Positions 1 through 63,856 of a stretch of 64,000 bases of DNA are shown piece after piece. The translations under genes and the position numbers were made by a program. This stretch comes from Schmidtea polychroa. Taxonomy: Eukaryota. Where the stretch lies: the NCBI GenBank assembly GCA_044892525.1, contig CM097885.1, forward strand, positions 23,004,001 to 23,068,000, in the 5' to 3' direction. Numbering within the stretch: the first letter of the stretch is position 1; every line of letters starts with the position of its first letter. The notes below the pieces were generated by a model. It was not told where the DNA came from and ran no database searches. It was given only the letters and a program-made list of their open reading frames with translations.

Positions 1-27016
<27,016 letters not shown>

Positions 27017-32063: not shown

Positions 32064-38432
<6,369 letters not shown>

Positions 38433-39803: not shown

Positions 39804-40267
39804 CATGCCTCATTCATCCATATATATATATTTTAGTAACTTTCTTTAATTGTAACTGATCTTTTCGATAATAATTCCAAATATCAAAATTTTAAATAAA
39901 GAAATAATAAAAAATTCCTTCTGGTAAATGGATGATAGTGCCAGCATCCCTAAAAAGAGCACTGACGAAGATTTAACACCCCATATTTATTATGTCGATA
40001 TTTTTTCATTAATAAATTTTTGACCTCATTAATAGAGCATACAACTGATTAGAACATAAATAAAATATATTTGATAAAAACTTTAAATAAGATTAAATTT
40101 AAAAAATATATTTATTTTATCCTTTGATGAACCGCCTTAGAATCCTCCGGTGGTAGATTATAGGGAGAAAACTTCTGGAATGTAGGACAGTTAATAAACT
40201 TAAGATTTATAGGAAATAATTTTATTCATTCTTTAAAGCTTTATATTATTTAAATTAAATTATTTAA

Positions 40268-40339
40268 CCGTTTGCGGACGGTAGGCCAGCAGTGCTGGCC
40301 CTAAATGGCTTATACGATATTAATTCCGTCCGCAAACGG
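40268..40339. mobile_element. 72-bp piggyBac-like micro-MITE
   Basis: TTAA-CCGTTTGCGGACGG ... CCGTCCGCAAACGG-TTAA. Confidence 0.7.
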
Positions 40340-42954
40340 TTAATATTATTCATATTGTTGTTTTCCATATTAAAATGTGTAAGTAAATTTTATTACTTCT
40401 TTTGAATTCTAATTATTTGTATAAAGGTGATAATTTAATGGTCACCCTCGACCGGAGGGAGATAAACTCACGGTAGTCCTCTCTATTGTTTTACCTCTTA
40501 CCCTACGCTGTCCTGTGAATAGTTCCATATTTGGTACATATCAATTCTGTAGTTAATGCCAATTATAAAATCATCAAAATTCGTGCTGTACAATATTTAT
40601 GTTGATATTTCATAATAAGTAAGAAGATATGGAGAATATTTCTGGCAATCAATTAATACTTTATAATTTAAGATTTTTATTTCTTTCACAAATAAAAATG
40701 GATGTTGTAGGTGTTATGAGTGATCTTATTTATGTTTATTATATTATATATACTCAAAGCTAGATGTTATGTGCTAGTTCTATATGTAGTTACTATGTAT
40801 TATTAATGTTTTTGTAGAATATTGTAGAACTCAAAAGAGTTTCCGTTAAAAGAACTGTATTGGGACAGCTGGGGTGCTTGTATGTTGATCTTTTAGTAAA
40901 ACATAAATTACAAATTATTATAAAATATGAAAAATTAATTTATCTTTAACAAAGTTTGTTTATTATAAAATATAACAACCTTCAATTTGGGAAGTTGAAG
41001 ATTTTGATATAGGATCTCTTTGGGTGAATGTTATTATTGCGATATTACAGGAAATTTTGATAATTAGTGTTGGAATTTTCTGAGAATTAATCGAATAATA
41101 ATAGAATCTGTTTTGGACTGATGCCCTTTCTTGGATTTTCTTTTATTTCTTATATTTCTAATCGAATATGACTTTTTTAAATATTCCGTAATTTAGGAGA
41201 TTTTAGATAGTTTTTTAATTTTTAATTTAATTTTTTTATTTGTTGATTATTCCATAACGATAATTTGCTATAGTTAATTATCGCTATATTTTTTTATACG
41301 CCGTACGCGATAACAAAAATAACCATTCATTATAAATCTTAAACACAAATAAAAAAATATAACACTACACTACAGTATATTATGTTATTACAATATGTTG
41401 GACGCAATTAAATTCAAATATTCTTCCAACATTTATTTATTAATTAGTAATTAACTAATTATATTTGTGATCAATAATTACTACGTCTCAGTTGTTTAAA
41501 TTCTCTTGTATTTTCTAAAAATTTAAACAATTAAGGCGTGGTAATTATTGATATTGATGTAATTATTGATCACAAATATAATTACTTGATTTAAAATAAT
41601 TTAATATAATTTAATATCAATTTTAATATACAAATCAACACAAATAGTTTTTTCAACTAGCTGATCACACTTATTACTTTTAAACTATATTATTTTTAAT
41701 AAAGAGTTTTGAAACTCGTTACGCAATATAAACTCAATTTTAAGGAAGATGAGAATAAAAGTAGTTAACCATATAGTCCAGATTATTTTAAAAATTTAAA
41801 GACACAATTTCGAAAGATGTGGTACAAATTATTCGACTTAACACTTGTCAAAGTTATTATTACCTTCTATTGCTAATTTTCAATGTATAAAAATATACTA
41901 ATTCAAAATATGTTAAAGTTTATAAATGACCTTAAACAAAACCTTTAGGATAAAAGGTTTGGAACAAATATTTTATCAGATCGTGTTTTGACACTGCCCA
42001 GTAATTTGCAATACGCTACAATTAATAATATCAGTAAAATCCTGTATGTTTTGTTAACCATTGATCTGTTTTTACTTTCGTTTAACATTTCATTTATTTT
42101 TATAGTAGTGAATAGTAAGGACTCCAGGACACTTTCAAGGTCATCCCAATGTCCAGATCAAATATAGGTCAATCGAATCATTTTTTTTTAATTAACATTT
42201 TATTTAATTACTTCTTTTTAATTTTTTTTTTTTTTTTTTTTTTTTTTCATTTTAATTTTATTAATTAATTATTTTATTATGTTTTATTTTAATTTATTAC
42301 ATTTAATTAATTTATTTAGTTTATTAATATTTTATTTTAATTACTTACGCTATTTAATTATTATTATTATTATTATTATTTTTTTTTTTTTTATTTTATT
42401 TTTTTTTTTTAATTAATTTATTTATTTTTTAATTTTATTTAATTACTTCTATTTATTTTTTTTTTCTTTTTAATTTTCTTAATTAATTATTTTATTATGC
42501 TTTTATTTTAGTATTATTTTATTATTTTATTATTTTATTTATTATTATTATTTTTTTTTTTTTTTTTTTTTTTTTTATTTTTTATTTTATTTTTTATTTT
42601 TTTTTTTTTTAATTTTACATTTACATTATATTCTAACAAGAGGTAAATTATAACGATAATATTTCAATTTGAATAAAATTTTAATTAGTAATTATTCAAT
42701 TTGAATAAATTTTAATTAGAAATTATTTAATTTATTATAAAATAAAACGCTGAGTTAATTTTAGATAAACTGGATATTAATATTTCGGAAAAAATAAATA
42801 AATAAATAAAATAAACACAAAAATAATATTTCTTACTTGAAACTAATTATCTAAATTAATTGGACAAATGAATAATTAAATGATAAAACACATTTTAATT
42901 AACTAAGTCAAACAATTCACAATATATATTTTATTATTCACATAAATTTAATTG

Positions 42955-45900
42955 TTAAAGTGCTTGTTTCGATTTGCATTCATTTCTAGACATAGCAGTT
43001 GCAATATGCATTTGGCGAATCTTATAGTGACCGTAGGCATAACTTTCATTACAATTGTACCAATACCTTTTATCGTCCAAACATTGGAGAGCTCGTTTTT
43101 CTGTCATGAAAGTATACAACTGATGATTGACACTTCCTATTCTTTTTTGTGGGATGCTCACTGTTCCACCATCAGTATACACTTTTTTATAGGCTTCATG
43201 TGTAAGATTAGAGTTTGTAAGTCTTATTCCTTTGGCTTTTAGAGTGTTTTTATCGCCTTGGAGTGAGTAGCACTTGGGTCGAAGAAACACCCATTCTTTA
43301 TATTGATTTCCTTTATTCTCATCCTTGAATTTCCCGATTACCGAACAAATTTTATCTGAGAACAATGGATCAGTCACTGGATAATTTGAAGTATCTAGGA
43401 GCCCATCGGCAATCATTTTTGGATATAGTTGTAAGCGTAAATCTACATTTTTACACTCTAAAAAGAAGGAATCTGTGTCACCGGCTACGATATTAATTTG
43501 ACAATTGAATTCTTCTCTATAACTCTGTAGTTCTTTATATTGAAACTGGTACATGCGAAGTTTGGATAAATCAAGTACGGTTTGTCCAATATACATTGGT
43601 CTATCTAAACACACAATTTCCTTATTGAGTATAACAGCAATGAGATCATCCGCAATCTTGATGCTACGACGAAACATAGGATTACTACAATAAGTTATCA
43701 ATCTTTTGCTTTTGCTGCATAATCTCAAATTTATACGTTTCTTCAAGTTTTCCACAGTTTTACCGTATAAACTGTTGTTCTTTAACTTATAATAATCTCG
43801 CTGAAACGAATCTGTACTAGCTGCTCTCATTTTGGTATTGTAATCAATATAACCTTTGAAAATAGCCACTTGCTTGAATTCTACAGCACGATTAACTTTT
43901 GTGACTTTTGCGCCGTAACTCAACCACTCTGTCAAAACTCTACCATTAACTACATAGTTTTTCTTAGGCTCATGAGTTAACAACAGCTTTTCAACTTTAC
44001 TACCAGGTGGATAACAAAGCTCAGGAGCTATAGGTAAATCATCTAGTTTACCTTGTATACTATCAGGAATGACGATGTCAACCTCTAGAACATATCCAAG
44101 ATCTCCATCAAACTTATCCCCATTTGCACATCTTTCAACAATACCATTCATTTCAGTCTGATCATTTATCCATCTAAATTCACCAACAGGAAGTTTTTGC
44201 GACAGCGCCCATCCATATAAATTATTAACATCTAGGTATGACATTTGTGTTGATTCATCAGCTTCAACATGATGTTTGTTGATAAATGTCATTCCACCAC
44301 GAATACCAGCTTCAAATAAACGGTAAAGCTCTGGATCTTGAATAAGTTCTACTGGTTCAGGTAACTGTTTAATAGCTGATGCCCAACTTAATCCGGGTAT
44401 GGAAACAAACGATAGAGCCTCAAGTCCATCTTCGTCAAATGTTTTTTCTCTGAAAGCTTCAAAAACATCGGCCAACAGAAAAACATCCAACTTGAGATAT
44501 ACTAGCATGTAATCTAGCAGTGTCTCACAGTTGTATTGTCGCCAGATTCGATTTGCATGTATATAATCTTCTTGACTAACTCCCTCCCAAATCGGTGGTA
44601 ATTCTGTTATTGACTGTAAAACATCCATTGATGTAGCCATATCATAAGGAAATATGCCTTTACCAGTTATTAAATGCGAATTGAAAATCTTTGAAGTAAG
44701 TGGAAGACGTGGCAAGTTTTTTGATAAATTTGCCAAGCTGCTATTTAAAAATTGTAAAGAATCAATGAATCTAATTCTTCTGCCTTTCGATGTCGCTGTA
44801 AGTGTGAGAAACTTTTCTGTTGATTGAGGAATAACAATTAAATTCCAATCGGGGAATTTTCCAATTGCATATTTTAATATATGATGAATGTCATATCCAC
44901 GAAGATTATGAAATACAACAGGTAAAGACGGATTGATTCTTCTAGCCAAATTACAATCTTGACACGCTGCTCCGAGATATTGACCAGTAAAATGATCATG
45001 ATCTCGAACAGGTATATTGATAATCTTTTTACAAAGGTAGCAATGAGTTTGAGTCGTGAATTCTTCCTGCTGTTCCCAAGTGAGTTCCATCATTTCCTTT
45101 GATCCATTAATTTTATACCACGGATAAACTATGTCTGTAGCTATATCATCCAATGCTTGTATGAACTGAATGATACAGTTTTTCCCAACAAATGTTTCAT
45201 TTCGGATCGGACAACCTTGATGAAGAAGCACAAATTCAGATGCAATCGGCTCATGTTTTTGGAAGTGTTTGTCATCTAGAGGTAATATCGATTCAAAGTC
45301 CGCGTAGACAACAAACTGCTGTTTTATAGTTTTACTCCAGTCTTTAAATTCGATATATTTATTCTCTGGCATTGAGTATAGAGTCGTACGCTCCACATTC
45401 TTCCTACAAAGACCTATATGTCTTTCAAAAGCAGGACGTTTTTGAAACCCATGAAGACATGTATGACACCAATGTGATTGGATTCTGACTCCTTCTACTC
45501 TATCTCTGTAATTCAGCAGTCGATCGAGATTAGTTACAGCCAAAAAATGATAATTTAATTCTAAAATTTAGTTAATATTTTTAATGATTAAAAGAAATAT
45601 TACCTTCTTCAATCAATAGGAGATATATCCGAGATCCCGTCGAAGTACTTCTATATACCAAGTCAACGAACGGATTCTTGAAAATATCATTAGTTTTTTG
45701 TTTAATTGGATCTTTATTATATTTGAGAACATTGATCGCTAGATTTGGATTCATTGCTTCAAATTGGCAAATGTTAACCAACTTCATCGGAAACCATTCA
45801 AATTTCCATTTTAAGTCTTAAAAACAAATTTCAATGATATATGACATTATATATATATATATTACCACTTAAATTATATTTCATTACTCTTTCTCTGTGA

Positions 45901-46938
45901 TGTTTTATGTCATCATAATGTAATACGGCCAGTATGCTATATAAAAAGCAGAATTGATCATTATTTTGAACATTAACTAAAGCCTGACAGTTTTTCAGGT
46001 AATTTGGCGTTTTAATGTAACTTGAACCTAAGTAAATATCTTGATTTATATATATAATAATGTAAATAAACTTACCAGATACATGTATTATGTCTGATAA
46101 TTTAGTTAAAATCATAGTAACTTCTAATATTTTATGAATTCTCCACCCACTACTTTGTTGAGTGTATTTTTCCAACTTTTCTTTTAATTTTTCAATTCCA
46201 TCATTAATAAATGAAGATGACATTGTAATTGCTTTATTCGACAAACACCATTTTTTAATTTCACCATCCTCTTTGATAAACTCTGCACAAAGTCCAAATT
46301 GGATTTTTACTGTACCCATTCGTTGAATATGATCTTCTATTTCTTTGATGAGACAATCTGGAACAACAATGTCAGGAGAATTAATTGCAGATACATCGCT
46401 TGTCAATTCAACACGAGAACCATTTAAGTCAGACTCCCGACGTGGACACAATTGTATGTTAGAGTCTCCATTTCCGTAAAATATTGACTTTCGTTTTGTG
46501 GTGCCAGAGTTTTGTCTAACTATATTTATAATTAATATTAAACAACTTAAATAACATAACTTGTAACATATTCTTTAATCTGCTTAGGATCGTATGATGT
46601 ATTCATTTTCGATTGTACTATAAAAAATTAATAATTGTTAATAGTAGAAAGAGTATTACTTTTAGTGATCATCCTGCTCTTCGTTTCTTCGAATCTTCTA
46701 AGATGGTGTCCGTGTTGTCGTACAAACATTAACCACCTACCTGGTGATATAATGAGACATTCCGGACATATGTAACCCGATAAGGTAGAGTCATTTATCT
46801 TGAAATATGATGATGTAACTGATTTACAGTTCTCCACATCTTCATGACTTTCGGCAATACAAAATTTATATAAACTGCATCCGTTCACTAAAAGAAAATA
46901 ATCATTAATATTAGATAGAGAATAAAAATTTATTCACT
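42955..46938 (-). CDS. polB: Protein-primed family-B DNA polymerase, left copy, spliced (predicted 1236 aa)
   Basis: Mirror of the right copy; exons 46938, 46887-46660, 46617-46561, 46519-46076, 46027-45866, 45816-45604, 45560-42955. One amino-acid difference seen (IQGKL versus IQDKL). Confidence 0.9.
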
Positions 46939-47374
46939 TATATAAGTTAAATTAAAAGTTTAAATGACAAACATTTGAAAAGTTACTGCTTATATATTAC
47001 ACATGATTACATTCTGACCAATCAAAATCAAGGAAGGAGTAGGAAAAATAAATGCATTACGTTGCAGTATTTTAAAACTTAAATTTTAAAACACATTTTA
47101 ATGATAAAGTTGACATTCGACATTTTCATAATAATTTAATAAAAAATAATGCGATGAACCCACAAAGTAATATCATTTTTCATCAAATTGCAAAACAGTA
47201 ATAACGTTTTCATAAATTGTAACAAAGTAATAACATATTTCAGATAAATTTTCAACAGTTGTAAAATATTTAAGCAAATTGTAACAAGATTAGAAAATAT
47301 TACAACAAAGTAGTAACATATTTCAGAAAATTTCAACAAAGTTGTAAAATATTTATCAAATTGTAACTAAAATA

Positions 47375-47800
47375 ATAAAAATATTGCAACAAAGTAATAA
47401 AATAATGATGTTAATTGGGACAAATCAATACATTATTTCGAAGACGGACAACAAATTAAAAAGAATATTGTAATAAATTGTGAAGTCTTTCAGTAAATTA
47501 CAACAAAGTAATAACATATTTCGGAAATATTTCACCAGATGTAAAATATTTAAGCAAATTGTTATAAGATTATAAAAATATTGCAACAAAGTAATAAAAT
47601 AATGATGTTAATTGGGACAAATCAATACATTATTTCGAAGACGGACAACAAATTAAAAAGAATATTGTAATAAATTGTGAAGTCTTTCAGTAAATTACAA
47701 CAAAGTAATAACATATTTCGGAAATATTTCACCAGATGTAAAATATTTAAGCAAATTGTTATAAGATTATAAAAATATTGCAACAAAGTAATAAAATAAT
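47375..47800. repeat. 197-bp tandem duplication built on AACAAAGTAATAA subrepeats (mirrored at ~49200-49630)
   Basis: gatgttaattgggac occurs at 47407 and 47604; degenerate subrepeats extend to ~47160. Confidence 0.85.
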
Positions 47801-47819
47801 ACAACATTTTAAACTCTAG

Positions 47820-48570
47820 ATCAATCCATTTTATAGAAAATTAAATTTTATCTCTATAATATATGAATAAATATACAAGGAAATTACGTTAGCTGTATGA
47901 AAAATACAAATTTATCGTAAAAACATGTGTGTGTATTACACACAACATACGTGACATAATTTTTAATCAAGCTATTTTATAGAAAATTAAATTTTATCTA
48001 TATAATATATGAATAAATATACAAGGAAATTACGTTAACTGTATGAAAAATACAAATTTATCATAAAAAACATGTGTATATTATACACAAAACAAGATAC
48101 ATAATTTCTAATCAATCCATTTTATAGAAAATTAAATTTTATCTCTATAATATATGAATAAAATCCTAAGAACATTACGTTAACTATATGAAAAATACAA
48201 ATTTATCGTAAAAACATGTGTGTATTACACAAAACATACGAGACATAAATTTTAATCAATCCATTTTATAGAAAATTAAATTTTATCTATATATTATATG
48301 AATAAAATCCTAAGAACATTACGTTAACTATATGAAAAATACAAATTTATCGTAAAAACATGTGTGTATTACACACAACATACGAGACATAAATTTTAAT
48401 CAATCCATTTTATAGAAAATTAAATTTTATCTATATAATATATGAATAAAAATCCAAGAAAATTACGTTAACCGCGCGAAAATACAAATTTATCGTAAAA
48501 ACATGTGTGTATTACACACAAAGCGACAAACTAAAGTTTTAATTGAGCCATTTTGTAGAGAATTAAATTC
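47820..48570. repeat. ~145-bp tandem array (five units plus a partial) in the left arm; one unit plus a partial in the right arm (~49010-49180)
   Basis: TTTT(A/G)TAGA(A/G)AATTAAATT at 47829, 47975, 48120, 48264, 48408 and 48551. Confidence 0.9.
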
Positions 48571-48669
48571 TGCCTATACATTGTTACACTTAAATCCCAA
48601 TCGAACAAAGAGAAAAGAGAGAAAAAGAGAGAGAAAAAACAGTAGAGTAGGGTATTGTGTGGACCCGGG

Positions 48670-48911
48670 TGAAACCTTTGCATAGATCTCTTCAAGACCT
48701 TACGAATGATGTGAATAAAATATAATTAAAATTTTAAAATACCGCAACGTAATATAAATTTAAAAAAAAAAAAATTTAAAAAAAAAAAAATTTAAAAAAA
48801 AAAAATTTAAAAAAAAAATTAAAAAAAAAAAAAAAAAAAAAATACCCCCCGGGGAGGAGGTATGACTCATATGTCTTTGTGACGTCATCGATGACGTCAT
48901 ATGTCTTTGTT
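48670..48911. other. Unique central spacer (loop) of the palindrome
   Basis: Bounded on both sides by CCCGGG; contains A-tracts, CCCCCCGGGG, TGACTCA and the perfect 20-bp palindrome TGACGTCATCGATGACGTCA (48880-48899). Confidence 0.9.
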
Positions 48912-49948
48912 CCCGGGTCCACACAATACCCTACTCTACTGTTTTTTCTCTCTCTTTTTCTCTCTTTTCTCTTTGTTCGATTGGGATTTAAGTGTAACAA
49001 TGTATAGGCAGAATTTAATTCTCTACAAAATGGCTCAATTAAAACTTTAGTTTGTCGCTTTGTGTGTAATACACACATGTTTTTACGATAAATTTGTATT
49101 TTCGCGCGGTTAACGTAATTTTCTTGGATTTTTATTCATATATTATAGAGATAAAATTTAATTTTCTATAAAATGGATTGATCTAGAGTTTAAAATGTTG
49201 TATTATTTTATTACTTTGTTGCAATATTTTTATAATCTTATAACAATTTGCTTAAATATTTTACATCTGGTGAAATATTTCCGAAATATGTTATTACTTT
49301 GTTGTAATTTACTGAAAGACTTCACAATTTATTACAATATTCTTTTTAATTTGTTGTCCGTCTTCGAAATAATGTATTGATTTGTCCCAATTAACATCAT
49401 TATTTTATTACTTTGTTGCAATATTTTTATAATCTTATAACAATTTGCTTAAATATTTTACATCTGGTGAAATATTTCCGAAATATGTTATTACTTTGTT
49501 GTAATTTACTGAAAGACTTCACAATTTATTACAATATTCTTTTTAATTTGTTGTCCGTCTTCGAAATAATGTATTGATTTGTCCCAATTAACATCATTAT
49601 TTTATTACTTTGTTGCAATATTTTTATTATTTTAGTTACAATTTGATAAATATTTTACAACTTTGTTGAAATTTTCTGAAATATGTTACTACTTTGTTGT
49701 AATATTTTCTAATCTTGTTACAATTTGCTTAAATATTTTACAACTGTTGAAAATTTATCTGAAATATGTTATTACTTTGTTACAATTTATGAAAACGTTA
49801 TTACTGTTTTGCAATTTGATGAAAAATGATATTACTTTGTGGGTTCATCGCATTATTTTTTATTAAATTATTATGAAAATGTCGAATGTCAACTTTATCA
49901 TTAAAATGTGTTTTAAAATTTAAGTTTTAAAATACTGCAACGTAATGC

Positions 49949-50085
49949 ATTTATTTTTCCTACTCCTTCCTTGATTTTGATTGGTCAGAATATATTTATT
50001 TTTCCTACCCCTTCCTTGATTTTGATTGGTCAGAATGTAATCATGTGTAATATATAAGCAGTAACTTTTCAAATGTTTGTCATTT
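49949..50085 (+). promoter_or_regulatory. Putative Pol II promoter of right polB (mirrored at ~46960-47055 for the left copy)
   Basis: Reverse CCAAT boxes (ATTGG at 49980 and 50025), TATATAAG at 50051, and Inr-like TCATT at 50080, about 30 bp downstream of the TATA. Confidence 0.6.
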
Positions 50086-50108
50086 AAACTTTTAATTTAA
50101 CTTATATA

Positions 50109-53100
50109 AGTGAATAAATTTTTATTCTCTATCTAATATTAATGATTATTTTCTTTTAGTGAACGGATGCAGTTTATATAAATTTTGTATTGCCGAAAGT
50201 CATGAAGATGTGGAGAACTGTAAATCAGTTACATCATCATATTTCAAGATAAATGACTCTACCTTATCGGGTTACATATGTCCGGAATGTCTCATTATAT
50301 CACCAGGTAGGTGGTTAATGTTTGTACGACAACACGGACACCATCTTAGAAGATTCGAAGAAACGAAGAGCAGGATGATCACTAAAAGTAATACTCTTTC
50401 TACTATTAACAATTATTAATTTTTTATAGTACAATCGAAAATGAATACATCATACGATCCTAAGCAGATTAAAGAATATGTTACAAGTTATGTTATTTAA
50501 GTTGTTTAATATTAATTATAAATATAGTTAGACAAAACTCTGGCACCACAAAACGAAAGTCAATATTTTACGGAAATGGAGACTCTAACATACAATTGTG
50601 TCCACGTCGGGAGTCTGACTTAAATGGTTCTCGTGTTGAATTGACAAGCGATGTATCTGCAATTAATTCTCCTGACATTGTTGTTCCAGATTGTCTCATC
50701 AAAGAAATAGAAGATCATATTCAACGAATGGGTACAGTAAAAATCCAATTTGGACTTTGTGCAGAGTTTATCAAAGAGGATGGTGAAATTAAAAAATGGT
50801 GTTTGTCGAATAAAGCAATTACAATGTCATCTTCATTTATTAATGATGGAATTGAAAAATTAAAAGAAAAGTTGGAAAAATACACTCAACAAAGTAGTGG
50901 GTGGAGAATTCATAAAATATTAGAAGTTACTATGATTTTAACTAAATTATCAGACATAATACATGTATCTGGTAAGTTTATTTACATTATTATATATATA
51001 AATCAAGATATTTACTTAGGTTCAAGTTACATTAAAACGCCAAATTACCTGAAAAACTGTCAGGCTTTAGTTAATGTTCAAAATAATGATCAATTCTGCT
51101 TTTTATATAGCATACTGGCCGTATTACATTATGATGACATAAAACATCACAGAGAAAGAGTAATGAAATATAATTTAAGTGGTAATATATATATATATAA
51201 TGTCATATATCATTGAAATTTGTTTTTAAGACTTAAAATGGAAATTTGAATGGTTTCCGATGAAGTTGGTTAACATTTGCCAATTTGAAGCAATGAATCC
51301 AAATCTAGCGATCAATGTTCTCAAATATAATAAAGATCCAATTAAACAAAAAACTAATGATATTTTCAAGAATCCGTTCGTTGACTTGGTATATAGAAGT
51401 ACTTCGACGGGATCTCGGATATATCTCCTATTGATTGAAGAAGGTAATATTTCTTTTAATCATTAAAAATATTAACTAAATTTTAGAATTAAATTATCAT
51501 TTTTTGGCTGTAACTAATCTCGATCGACTGCTGAATTACAGAGATAGAGTAGAAGGAGTCAGAATCCAATCACATTGGTGTCATACATGTCTTCATGGGT
51601 TTCAAAAACGTCCTGCTTTTGAAAGACATATAGGTCTTTGTAGGAAGAATGTGGAGCGTACGACTCTATACTCAATGCCAGAGAATAAATATATCGAATT
51701 TAAAGACTGGAGTAAAACTATAAAACAGCAGTTTGTTGTCTACGCGGACTTTGAATCGATATTACCTCTAGATGACAAACACTTCCAAAAACATGAGCCG
51801 ATTGCATCTGAATTTGTGCTTCTTCATCAAGGTTGTCCGATCCGAAATGAAACATTTGTTGGGAAAAACTGTATCATTCAGTTCATACAAGCATTGGATG
51901 ATATAGCTACAGACATAGTTTATCCGTGGTATAAAATTAATGGATCAAAGGAAATGATGGAACTCACTTGGGAACAGCAGGAAGAATTCACGACTCAAAC
52001 TCATTGCTACCTTTGTAAAAAGATTATCAATATACCTGTTCGAGATCATGATCATTTTACTGGTCAATATCTCGGAGCAGCGTGTCAAGATTGTAATTTG
52101 GCTAGAAGAATCAATCCGTCTTTACCTGTTGTATTTCATAATCTTCGTGGATATGACATTCATCATATATTAAAATATGCAATTGGAAAATTCCCCGATT
52201 GGAATTTAATTGTTATTCCTCAATCAACAGAAAAGTTTCTCACACTTACAGCGACATCGAAAGGCAGAAGAATTAGATTCATTGATTCTTTACAATTTTT
52301 AAATAGCAGCTTGGCAAATTTATCAAAAAACTTGCCACGTCTTCCACTTACTTCAAAGATTTTCAATTCGCATTTAATAACTGGTAAAGGCATATTTCCT
52401 TATGATATGGCTACATCAATGGATGTTTTACAGTCAATAACAGAATTACCACCGATTTGGGAGGGAGTTAGTCAAGAAGATTATATACATGCAAATCGAA
52501 TCTGGCGACAATACAACTGTGAGACACTGCTAGATTACATGCTAGTATATCTCAAGTTGGATGTTTTTCTGTTGGCCGATGTTTTTGAAGCTTTCAGAGA
52601 AAAAACATTTGACGAAGATGGACTTGAGGCTCTATCGTTTGTTTCCATACCCGGATTAAGTTGGGCATCAGCTATTAAACAGTTACCTGAACCAGTAGAA
52701 CTTATTCAAGATCCAGAGCTTTACCGTTTATTTGAAGCTGGTATTCGTGGTGGAATGACATTTATCAACAAACATCATGTTGAAGCTGATGAATCAACAC
52801 AAATGTCATACCTAGATGTTAATAATTTATATGGATGGGCGCTGTCGCAAAAACTTCCTGTTGGTGAATTTAGATGGATAAATGATCAGACTGAAATGAA
52901 TGGTATTGTTGAAAGATGTGCAAATGGGGATAAGTTTGATGGAGATCTTGGATATGTTCTAGAGGTTGACATCGTCATTCCTGATAGTATACAAGATAAA
53001 CTAGATGATTTACCTATAGCTCCTGAGCTTTGTTATCCACCTGGTAGTAAAGTTGAAAAGCTGTTGTTAACTCATGAGCCTAAGAAAAACTATGTAGTTA

Positions 53101-54092
53101 ATGGTAGAGTTTTGACAGAGTGGTTGAGTTACGGCGCAAAAGTCACAAAAGTTAATCGTGCTGTAGAATTCAAGCAAGTGGCTATTTTCAAAGGTTATAT
53201 TGATTACAATACCAAAATGAGAGCAGCTAGTACAGATTCGTTTCAGCGAGATTATTATAAGTTAAAGAACAACAGTTTATACGGTAAAACTGTGGAAAAC
53301 TTGAAGAAACGTATAAATTTGAGATTATGCAGCAAAAGCAAAAGATTGATAACTTATTGTAGTAATCCTATGTTTCGTCGTAGCATCAAGATTGCGGATG
53401 ATCTCATTGCTGTTATACTCAATAAGGAAATTGTGTGTTTAGATAGACCAATGTATATTGGACAAACCGTACTTGATTTATCCAAACTTCGCATGTACCA
53501 GTTTCAATATAAAGAACTACAGAGTTATAGAGAAGAATTCAATTGTCAAATTAATATCGTAGCCGGTGACACAGATTCCTTCTTTTTAGAGTGTAAAAAT
53601 GTAGATTTACGCTTACAACTATATCCAAAAATGATTGCCGATGGGCTCCTAGATACTTCAAATTATCCAGTGACTGATCCATTGTTCTCAGATAAAATTT
53701 GTTCGGTAATCGGGAAATTCAAGGATGAGAATAAAGGAAATCAATATAAAGAATGGGTGTTTCTTCGACCCAAGTGCTACTCACTCCAAGGCGATAAAAA
53801 CACTCTAAAAGCCAAAGGAATAAGACTTACAAACTCTAATCTTACACATGAAGCCTATAAAAAAGTGTATACTGATGGTGGAACAGTGAGCATCCCACAA
53901 AAAAGAATAGGAAGTGTCAATCATCAGTTGTATACTTTCATGACAGAAAAACGAGCTCTCCAATGTTTGGACGATAAAAGGTATTGGTACAATTGTAATG
54001 AAAGTTATGCCTACGGTCACTATAAGATTCGCCAAATGCATATTGCAACTGCTATGTCTAGAAATGAATGCAAATCGAAACAAGCACTTTAA
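50109..54092 (+). CDS. polB: Protein-primed family-B DNA polymerase, right copy, spliced (predicted 1236 aa)
   Basis: Exons 50109, 50160-50387, 50430-50486, 50528-50971, 51020-51181, 51231-51443, 51487-54092 join in frame (3711 nt). Motifs: SSGW, GSSYIKTP, VNVQNNDQFCF, C2HC finger, ExoI YADFES, endonuclease-VII-like CxxC..RDHDH.TG..LGAAC..CNL, ExoII FHNLRGYD, FIDS, KGIFPY, ExoIII YLKLDV, RGG, Pol A YLDVNNLYG, Pol B KLKNNSLYGK, Pol C GDTDS, PKCY, KAKG. Confidence 0.92.
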
Positions 54093-56168
54093 CAATTAAA
54101 TTTATGTGAATAATAAAATATATATTGTGAATTGTTTGACTTAGTTAATTAAAATGTGTTTTATCATTTAATTATTCATTTGTCCAATTAATTTAGATAA
54201 TTAGTTTCAAGTAAGAAATATTATTTTTGTGTTTATTTTATTTATTTATTTATTTTTTCCGAAATATTAATATCCAGTTTATCTAAAATTAACTCAGCGT
54301 TTTATTTTATAATAAATTAAATAATTTCTAATTAAAATTTATTCAAATTGAATAATTACTAATTAAAATTTTATTCAAATTGAAATATTATCGTTATAAT
54401 TTACCTCTTGTTAGAATATAATGTAAATGTAAAATTAAAAAAAAAAAAATAAAAAAAAAAATAAAAATAAAAAAAAAAAAATAAAAAAAAATAATAATAA
54501 TAAATAAAATAATAAAATAATAAAATAATACTAAAATAAAAGCATAATAAAATAATTAATTAAGAAAATTAAAAAGAAAAAAAAAATAAATAGAAGTAAT
54601 TAAATAAAATTAAAAAATAAATAAATTAATTAAAAAAAAAAAAATAAAATAAAAAAAAAAAATAATAATAATGATAATAATAATTAAATAGCGTAAGTAA
54701 TTAAAATAAAATATTAATAAACTAAATAAATTAATTAAATGTAATAAATTAAAATAAAACATAATAAAATAATTAATTAATAAAATTAAAATGAAAAAAA
54801 AAAAAAAAAAAAAAAAAAAATTAAAAAGAAGTAATTAAATAAAATGTTAATTAAAAAAAAATGATTCGATTGACCTATATTTGATCTGGACATTGGGATG
54901 ACCTTGAAAGTGTCCTGGAGTCCTTACTATTCACTACTTTTTATTGCGACTAATCAAATACTTTTTTCTTGTTTGACAAACTTTTGACATTGCCTTCATT
55001 AAGATTATGTTACACATTCATCCACAGTCACAATGAAAATACATGAAATGCCTTAAGATTACAATTCATAATAAAAGCATCGATATATTACTGATTTATA
55101 GTCTTCAAGCTCTCTTTTTAATAAATTCAATGGAAAAAATAATCAGTTATGAAATTGGAAAAAAAGGTTCTTATAATATTAGAAACAGGGAAGAAGAAAA
55201 AACAGGAAAATAAAACTTGTTTGGTTAAAATATATATTTTGCAAAGGAAATCGCACTAAGAATTTATTTCTGAATACATCTTATTGATAAGTCTTTGTAA
55301 AGCTTCTGATAAATAAATAAACTAAAACTTCATATAATAAATTTTATTTAAATAAATTCTGCAATATGCATTCTTCAATACTATGCGAATCTGTTTAATA
55401 AAGATTTTCATGAAGAATTGCATTTGTTCTCAAATTGATTCGTATTTCTTAACTTCCGAAATTCTTTTTTTTCTAATTCGAGCATAGTTCTCTTCCCTGA
55501 TATCTTTTTGTATTATTAAAGCAATCCTCTCTTCTTCATTATTTTAAAGATAATTTAGGAAGTTTTTTTATATTTTTAATAAAATATTTGTTTTAACCAT
55601 ATAAAGAAGAATATTACACGTAAATCTAAATATTTTAATGGAGAATCATAATTTTAGTTTGATGATAATATTATTTAAAGTATTAGGGGCTCTGCCCCTG
55701 TTCGCTTCGCTTCAACAACCCCGTTAGAACGTGGGGTTAATGTTAAAGTTAATATCCAGAGAATTCTTGGACAGGAGTAAGATTCAGTTTATTAATATGT
55801 TTACATAACTATGATAAAAGATAATAGCATTAACCGTTATTAAGTAATATAGAACGATAAGTACAAAAGAATAAATACTTCATAAAAAAAATATAAAAAA
55901 AAATTAAATAAAATAAAATAAAAAAAGGTAAAATTCGGATAGAGGGGACCCTTAGCTTTTTATATATAGAGAGATGCCTGGGCGACCAACTGCTCATGAG
56001 CCGTAGGCAGCTTTCGGCGGAATAATTTTATGCGCCTTTGAGCATAATATCATTTTTATATTAATATTTAAATTTTTATATTTATGAAAAGAAATTTATT
56101 TTTTTGCGATTCATTTTATTTTAATATTTTTAAAATTGGATCCCGCATTGTTTGCTGTTGGTCAGGCC

Positions 56169-56683: not shown

Positions 56684-56887
56684 GTCAGGCCTGAATTAGT
56701 GAGTCATTAAACTTGAAAGGTTAACTATTTTGTAAGCTTGGTTGGTCATAAAGATTAGTTTTAATAGAGTTATGGCGCAAATGTAAGCAAGTTATAGTCA
56801 CAATTTTAAAAATTTATATTTTTTGATTTAATTATTAAAATCCCAAAATAAATTAAATTAATTAATTGAAATTTCAATAAATTCTAG

Positions 56888-63267
<6,380 letters not shown>

Positions 63268-63856
63268 GTAAGATTAAATGATTTTTATTTTATTTTTCAT
63301 TTTGAAACTTTTATTTGGGGGTCATTATTTATCCAAGATGTCTATTTATTAAAATATTTTGTAAATCAATATTTATGTTTGGTACATAATACGCCTAAAC
63401 CTCGATTTGCGTCGTTTTCGAAGTTACGTCGTTAAAATTTCAATTTGCATTGTTAAATTTTAATAATTTTTTAAGATGTAAAATTTCCAGAGACCGCAAA
63501 TAAAATTTATTTTGAAATAAATTTTAAAGTTTAAAATGAATTAAATTAATGAATTTAGCGAACTTTTGTTTTAATTTAATAATTTTTTAAGTTTTTTTAT
63601 TTAATGTATTGTTTTAATTTATGACGAATTAAAGTTTTTGTTGATATTCATACACTTATGATATAAAAACATGTTTTTATTAATAAAATTTGGTTTATTT
63701 TCATGAAATTGACTACAAGATACCAAATAATGAAAATCTAGTATAAACACATACGATAAACGATTTCGATTTGCGTCATCTTTTTACTGTCCCAATTAAC
63801 GACGCAAATTAAGATTTAGGTGTATTTTTAAAGTTAATATGTAAATTGTAGTATTA

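Follow-up and report, generated by a model that had tools for sequence, protein, structure and literature searches.

A palindromic element with Polinton ends and a polymerase as its only gene type in Schmidtea polychroa

Results

Organization and ends of the element

We found a palindromic element of 12,835 bp (42104-54938) in a window of 64,000 nucleotides of Schmidtea polychroa DNA, the window being the whole stretch analysed. The element opens with AGTAGT and closes with ACTACT, and direct TTTTAT hexamers directly abut both ends. Two long arms are separated by a short unique spacer, and each arm carries one outward-pointing gene whose stop codon lies ~850 bp from the terminus (Table 1). This gene, a protein-primed DNA polymerase, is the only gene type in the element. 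Related loci were collected in a metagenome scan, in which 477 out of 600 matched stretches were confirmed and the best 80 of these were kept, giving 75 loci.

Table 1. Features of the element and its junctions (window coordinates)
Feature	Position	Strand	Basis or remark
Left target-site duplication copy, TTTTAT	42098-42103	+	Junction sequence
Left end motif, (AGT)2	42104-42109	+	Sequence; motif as in PMC8097293
Terminal block, 76 bp, ordinary complexity	42104-42179	+	Identical at both ends; two copies in window
Left arm, 6,566 bp	42104-48669		Arm alignment
AT-rich, T-run-rich stretch, from end to polymerase stop codon	42180-42954		1-14% GC per 100 nt (42201-42900)
Polymerase gene, left copy	42955-46938	-	Pfam, homologue alignment, exon reconstruction
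45-bp unit upstream of polymerase	47011-47055		One copy left; two right (~49947-50036)
Tandem repeats, 197-bp period from ~83-bp subunits	47208-47800		Mirrored at ~49202-49794
Five diverged 145-bp tandem units	47810-48550		One hybrid unit in right arm, 579 bp shorter
Unique spacer, 242 bp	48670-48911		A-runs and a perfect 20-bp palindrome (48880-48899)
Right arm, 6,027 bp	48912-54938		Arm alignment
Polymerase gene, right copy	50109-54092	+	1,236 codons, all exons free of internal stops
Predicted GT-AG introns, right copy	50110-50159, 50388-50429, 50487-50527, 50972-51019, 51182-51230, 51444-51486	+	All phase 1
Right end motif, (ACT)2	54933-54938	+	Junction sequence
Right target-site duplication copy, TTTTAT	54939-54944	+	Junction sequence

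The original prediction for this locus was of AGTAGT termini flanked by a 6-bp direct target-site duplication, and the junction letters (42098-42109 and 54933-54944) agree with it, reading TTTTAT/AGTAGTG on the left and CACTACT/TTTTAT on the right. The span it gave, 42098-42180, covers the left junction and leaves the right one outside. Mirror symmetry ends exactly at the termini: the first base outside is mismatched and 6 of 40 outward positions are complementary. No BLAST match was found between the left and right flanks (6 kb each). The argument of the original prediction against a host inverted duplication holds, given the direct hexamer and the unrelated flanks. When direct repeats of lengths 1-12 immediately outside the ends were compared, only lengths 1 and 6 matched.

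The prediction had also named a chance match of AT-rich hexamers as an alternative. TTTTAT makes up 0.25% of all flank hexamers of the window and 0.40% of those within 2 kb of the ends, and two flank hexamers drawn at random are identical in 0.13% of cases. The chance of a TTTTAT duplication is thus 0.25-0.4%, or by our estimate roughly 1% if any length of 5-8 is allowed. The duplication is unlikely to be due to chance, and AT-richness keeps it from deciding the matter alone. A search for a paralogous empty site with the 400 bp beside each junction yielded no second copy that usefully spans the insertion point, either in the window or among the 75 loci (best 80 of 477).

The Polinton end motif and the 6-bp duplication are textbook features. 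The assignment of both to the Polintons in the original prediction matches the published description, in which (AGT)2//(ACT)2 is the commonest Maverick end motif and duplications are 6 bp long (PMC8097293), and the clade of the polymerase includes integrase- and capsid-bearing Polintons (see below). Duplications of 5-8 bp are given elsewhere (PMC10748475). The end motif has been tied to jumping-back priming by analogy, as what "would be expected" (PMC8097293).

The terminal block presumably serves as replication origin and integrase site. Its 76 bp occur only at the two ends in the window and have no match in the 75 loci (best 80 of 477), and its first 20 nt have no match in viral contigs. Hairpin-primed ends were considered and rejected because the terminal 77 nt fold no better than shuffled sequences (z = 0.85). 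At 42132-42142 the block contains the word TCAAGGTCA, which we take to resemble a nuclear-receptor site; the same word occurs upstream of the polymerase in L026. Searches with Rfam and ARAGORN found nothing in the element.

Divergence of the arms and the spacer

The two arms differ at five mismatches in 5,980 aligned columns, plus small homopolymer indels. Four of the five mismatches fall in the outer 500 bp, and three of these four are in T-runs. Slips in T-run length mimic substitutions, which leaves about one unambiguous change in the outermost 850 bp and one in the inner 5.1 kb. The arms further differ by the extra 45-bp unit on the right and by a 579-bp loss in the right arm. So little divergence between the arms means that either the insertion or the duplication was recent. 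The inverted repeats, at 6.0-6.6 kb, are four times longer than the longest in the reported range (PMC8097293).

The self-complementary hexamer CCCGGG borders the spacer on both sides (48664-48669 and 48912-48917). It occurs five times in the 64 kb, three of them within 255 bp at the spacer; palindromic hexamers occupy 3-4% of positions. Neither a second copy of the spacer in the window nor an extended match to it in the 75 loci (best 80 of 477) was found. A 19-nt palindromic word within it (48881-48899) is also found upstream of the polymerase in the distant locus L036 (805-823, E = 0.01), possibly as a shared promoter site, or by chance. A word in the 45-bp unit, which we take to be of CCAAT type, likewise precedes the polymerase gene of L004.

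Polymerase gene

The main frame of the polymerase gene (870 codons) matches Pfam DNA_pol_B_2 (PF03175, E = 9e-31) and, weakly and below the curated cut-off, Endonuclease_7 (PF02945, E = 2.5e-4). Intronless homologues of ~1,150-1,300 residues align to additional upstream pieces, so that in both arms the gene is reconstructed as seven exons with six predicted introns of 41-50 nt and 12-17% GC each, and the first of these seems to interrupt the start codon. L004 and L014 have counterparts of introns 4 and 6 in matching positions, which points to predicted introns that were inherited rather than to decay; other close relatives, for example L001 and L002, are uninterrupted at the intron sites. Motifs that we take to be those of the exonuclease and of the polymerase are present in both copies. 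The transpoviron arrangement, in which a polymerase-derived protein without the exonuclease is fused to a superfamily 1 helicase, is not seen: the element has no match to a helicase family, and the exonuclease motifs are there.

An N-terminal protease-like domain has a cysteine and a histidine that all 68 of the 68 homologues compared share, and both are read in exons of the window. These residues appear to be in line with the published layout of terminal protein, vOTU and polymerase (bioRxiv 2024.03.18.585575). A model of P0003, an intronless homologue with ~60% identity (pLDDT 89), has phi29 polymerase as its best PDB match and bidnavirus-type and adintovirus polymerases as its BFVD matches. 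No match was found in a PDB sequence search with either the window polymerase or the capsid of L023, and single-protein and alignment searches of viral contigs returned no polymerase relative. The database protein P0006, from a 1.9-kb contig, is 95% identical to the window polymerase over 515 residues; a very close relative exists elsewhere.

The left and right copies differ at one codon. The left copy deviates at one codon from a residue that is invariant in 26 of 26 relatives (best 80 of 477), a pattern that fits drift better than selection on both copies; the open frame may reflect only the youth of the element.

Missing Polinton genes and related loci

We compared 327 ORFs from the 75 loci (best 80 of 477), 17 of them integrase-like, with the window by tblastn, and found no match of E < 0.1 inside the element beyond the span of the polymerase gene. 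The claim of the original prediction that no integrase is encoded is borne out, since none of the 17 has a match there. The best match of the L011 integrase anywhere in the window has E = 1.4, and the L011 capsid and ATPase markers have no match of E < 1 inside the element. Neither did tblastn with the ORFs of related loci detect remnants of integrase, capsid, ATPase or TATA-binding protein (TBP) genes in the element. As regards a Ulp1-type maturation protease, the ORF list contains no non-polymerase frame of more than 119 codons, and the 119-codon frame is of low complexity. The element thus has the polymerase, the (AGT)2//(ACT)2 end motif and the 6-bp duplication of a Polinton. It resembles a doubled Polinton end and is not a complete Polinton: integrase, capsids and ATPase are missing, and the inverted repeats are far longer than the ~50-1,500 bp typical of the group.

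An integrase-like ORF is present in 17 of the 75 loci and a capsid or ATPase in four more (best 80 of 477). Among the 26 closest loci (L001-L026, from the same best 80 of 477), other Polinton core genes appear in only two, L011 and L023; the remaining 24 are contigs of 1.0-4.8 kb. L011 (1-12938) is a nearly complete Polinton, with an rve integrase, an A32-type ATPase, a compact TBP (Pfam TBP, E = 3e-17) and a double-jelly-roll-like capsid (Atlas score 0.98) beside a polymerase 52% identical to that of the window. L023 carries a capsid homologue. In a FastTree analysis of 67 rows, which took in 52 of the 75 loci, chosen for coverage of the palm region with L023 added, and 14 out of 120 listed proteins, the window polymerase falls in a 27-row clade with L011 and L023 (support 96). 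This placement indicates that the element descends from complete Polintons. In both L011 and L023 the 3' end of the polymerase gene faces the capsid gene and there is no terminus at that side, whereas in the window the stop codon lies close to the end; the parent of the window element must therefore have had another layout. Long palindromes are probably poorly shown by short-read contigs.

Part of the region 40000-46950 is contained in 20 of the 24 sequencing runs listed (eight studies), and six of these contain half or more. None of the listed matches covering this region is an RNA run, which has no bearing on expression. Near a related polymerase, L009 has a small ORF (2926-3234) with an HCxxGxxRS motif, presumably typical of dual-specificity phosphatases.

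Discussion

Origin of the palindrome

The original prediction held that the palindrome was either integrated as a unit by an integrase supplied in trans or had one arm rebuilt after insertion. These two remain the leading options, and we favour the former. The element is probably a snap-back product of Polinton replication that was inserted whole by a helper integrase. Several observations point this way: the Polinton ends with a 6-bp duplication that chance would seldom produce, the unrelated flanks, the near-identical arms, the self-complementary CCCGGG at both spacer borders, a layout that fits the definition of snap-back genomes (PMC13506859), in which one end region is mirrored around a short loop, and a polymerase clade that includes capsid- and integrase-bearing Polintons.

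The sequence establishes the termini, the duplicated hexamer, the mirror symmetry, the genes present and the descent of the polymerase; we infer the fold-back, the priming and the supply of integrase in trans. Most simply, a free linear Polinton would be copied from its polymerase-side end until the new strand passed the second CCCGGG. The strand would then fold back, the second CCCGGG pairing with the first and leaving a 242-nt loop between them, and would copy its own arm to the end, giving a molecule of end, arm, spacer, mirror arm and end with two working termini. AGTAGT ends would let the terminal-protein domain prime by jumping back, and such a molecule could replicate as its parent did, perhaps with the polymerase that it encodes. 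A complete Polinton sharing the nucleus would supply a retroviral-like integrase, and this enzyme would recognise both ends and insert the molecule as one unit, duplicating TTTTAT.

The same final sequence is predicted if a complete Polinton integrated by means of its own integrase and a later internal break was repaired from the opposite arm through the terminal repeat, so that the polymerase half was mirrored over the half with capsid and integrase. This rebuilding in place, which we regard as improbable but as the most serious competitor, keeps the ends and the duplication without any helper, and Polinton-driven local rearrangements and loci with polymerase and terminal inverted repeats but no integrase are described in C. 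elegans (bioRxiv 2024.01.15.575659). Mismatches concentrated in the outer 500 bp, as four of the five are here, would also be expected of an older terminal repeat; with T-runs accounting for three, the comparison comes down to about one clear change outside against one inside and decides nothing. Rebuilding further requires two events at one locus, and we detected no trace in the element of the half that would have been lost. Snap-back replication, for its part, has to rely on a fold-back homology of just 6 bp, and the 3-4% chance of such a palindromic hexamer is not negligible. A helper with the same ends is absent among the 75 loci (best 80 of 477) and the viral contigs, and the gene layout of L011 and L023 differs from that required of the parent.

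Three other explanations are far less probable. Two Polintons in opposite orientation could have lain close together and lost the DNA between their polymerase halves, the matching hexamers being an AT-rich coincidence. TTTTAT is indeed common in the AT-rich flanks, and several nearby insertions are known at eri-6/7 of C. elegans (bioRxiv 2024.01.15.575659), but the match would have to arise at exactly the expected length and two nearly identical parents would have to be joined within the 242-bp loop. We give as little credence to self-integration by the HNH/endonuclease VII-like domain inside the polymerase: although the domain is detectable, the L011 polymerase has it too and yet adjoins an rve integrase, the Polinton polymerases of nematodes and oomycetes share it (PMC10748475), and a 6-bp duplication is the scar of integrase-bearing Mavericks (PMC8097293). 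Slightly less credible still is an artefact of assembly or library, such as a fold-back read or an inverted chimera that doubled one arm. The very high identity of the arms is what such an error would give, but they differ by the 579-bp repeat deletion, the extra 45-bp unit and substitutions, a unique spacer separates them, and the symmetry breaks off right at the end motif, beyond which the flanks differ and carry a direct duplication.

Comparison with known systems

With Polintons/Mavericks (class Polintoviricetes) the element shares the inverted (AGT)2//(ACT)2 ends, the 6-bp duplication and a protein-primed polymerase with an HNH-type insertion, which some Polinton polymerases contain (PMC8097293; PMC10748475). 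Its length is at the lower edge of their size range of 12.7-24.6 kb (PMC8097293). It differs in lacking integrase, capsids and ATPase, and in that its inverted repeats, 46-1,447 bp long in Mavericks (PMC8097293), enclose the only gene, which is therefore present twice. Intact vertebrate Mavericks are intronless, in contrast to the six predicted introns here (PMC8097293; PMC10748475).

Snap-back or copy-back defective viral genomes likewise have the same end copied back, two functional termini and a short non-mirrored centre, and a helper supplies their missing functions, a likeness that would extend to the window element if our reading is right (PMC13506859). Published descriptions of them come mainly from RNA viruses (PMC13506859), whereas the window element is DNA, sits in a chromosome between duplicated target sites and keeps a replicase gene. 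Non-autonomous DNA transposons and foldback elements also retain their cis ends without an integration enzyme, and their mobilisation in trans is textbook knowledge (PMC6431247); the element differs from these in its size of 12.8 kb and in keeping an open replication gene. Transpovirons and cytoplasmic linear plasmids are, like it, capsid-less Polinton relatives that keep a replication protein (bioRxiv 2024.03.18.585575). Transpovirons have a polymerase-helicase fusion, as opposed to a full polymerase with predicted introns of spliceosomal type in an integrated element, and the linear plasmids are cytoplasmic rather than integrated (bioRxiv 2024.03.18.585575).

Our literature search found no report of a palindromic polymerase-only Polinton, and an earlier description is possible. 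Non-autonomous Polintons are said to have been described by Kapitonov and Jurka in 2006, and also in Repbase, which may lower the novelty. Adenovirus genomes with duplicated ends exist; the literature search returned no paper on them. The available parts of two papers (PMC3014272; PMC12166617) contain no description of a polymerase-only palindromic Polinton, and those of a third (bioRxiv 2026.07.28.741278) treat short terminal palindromes only.

Implications

Polinton replication and integration have been modelled on the biochemistry of adenoviruses and retroviruses (PMC8097293). What the cis signals can achieve by themselves is shown by a snap-back genome that has integrated and kept its ends intact. 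If confirmed, the snap-back origin would mean that free linear intermediates exist, that the polymerase can fold back on a new strand and that any molecule bearing two correct ends is a substrate for the integrase in trans. Surveys that demand a polymerase and an integrase in one element (e.g., PMC8097293) would miss this palindromic class.

A bolder reading, which we put forward tentatively and think rather doubtful, is that the element belongs to a family of self-replicating, polymerase-only palindromic satellites that copy themselves with their own spliced polymerase and borrow the integrase, and perhaps the capsids, of full Polintons. The borrowing of capsids is suggested by the size of the element, close to the lower limit of complete Mavericks (PMC8097293). 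Such a family could also supply polymerase to gene-less palindromic satellites. If real, it would parallel, in animal nuclei, the defective-interfering genomes and transpovirons, and it would document in nature how strand displacement and fold-back occur in Polinton replication.

Surroundings of the element

On both sides of the element (~17500-25400 and 56860-63435) lie exons of what we take to be TRPM-like channel genes, and a Pfam TRPM2 match below the cut-off occurs at 63130. The element seems to be located between tandem TRPM-like copies, or close to where the second one begins. Far from it, a 35-codon fragment (20220-20324) of the major capsid gene of a Polinton is 51-56% identical to those of L011 (E = 4e-5) and L023 (E = 3e-7). 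Fragments at 36860-37407 are presumably decayed actin-like sequences and include a local duplication. Finally, hAT transposase frames are found at 7644-9563 (639 codons) and 32981-33622.
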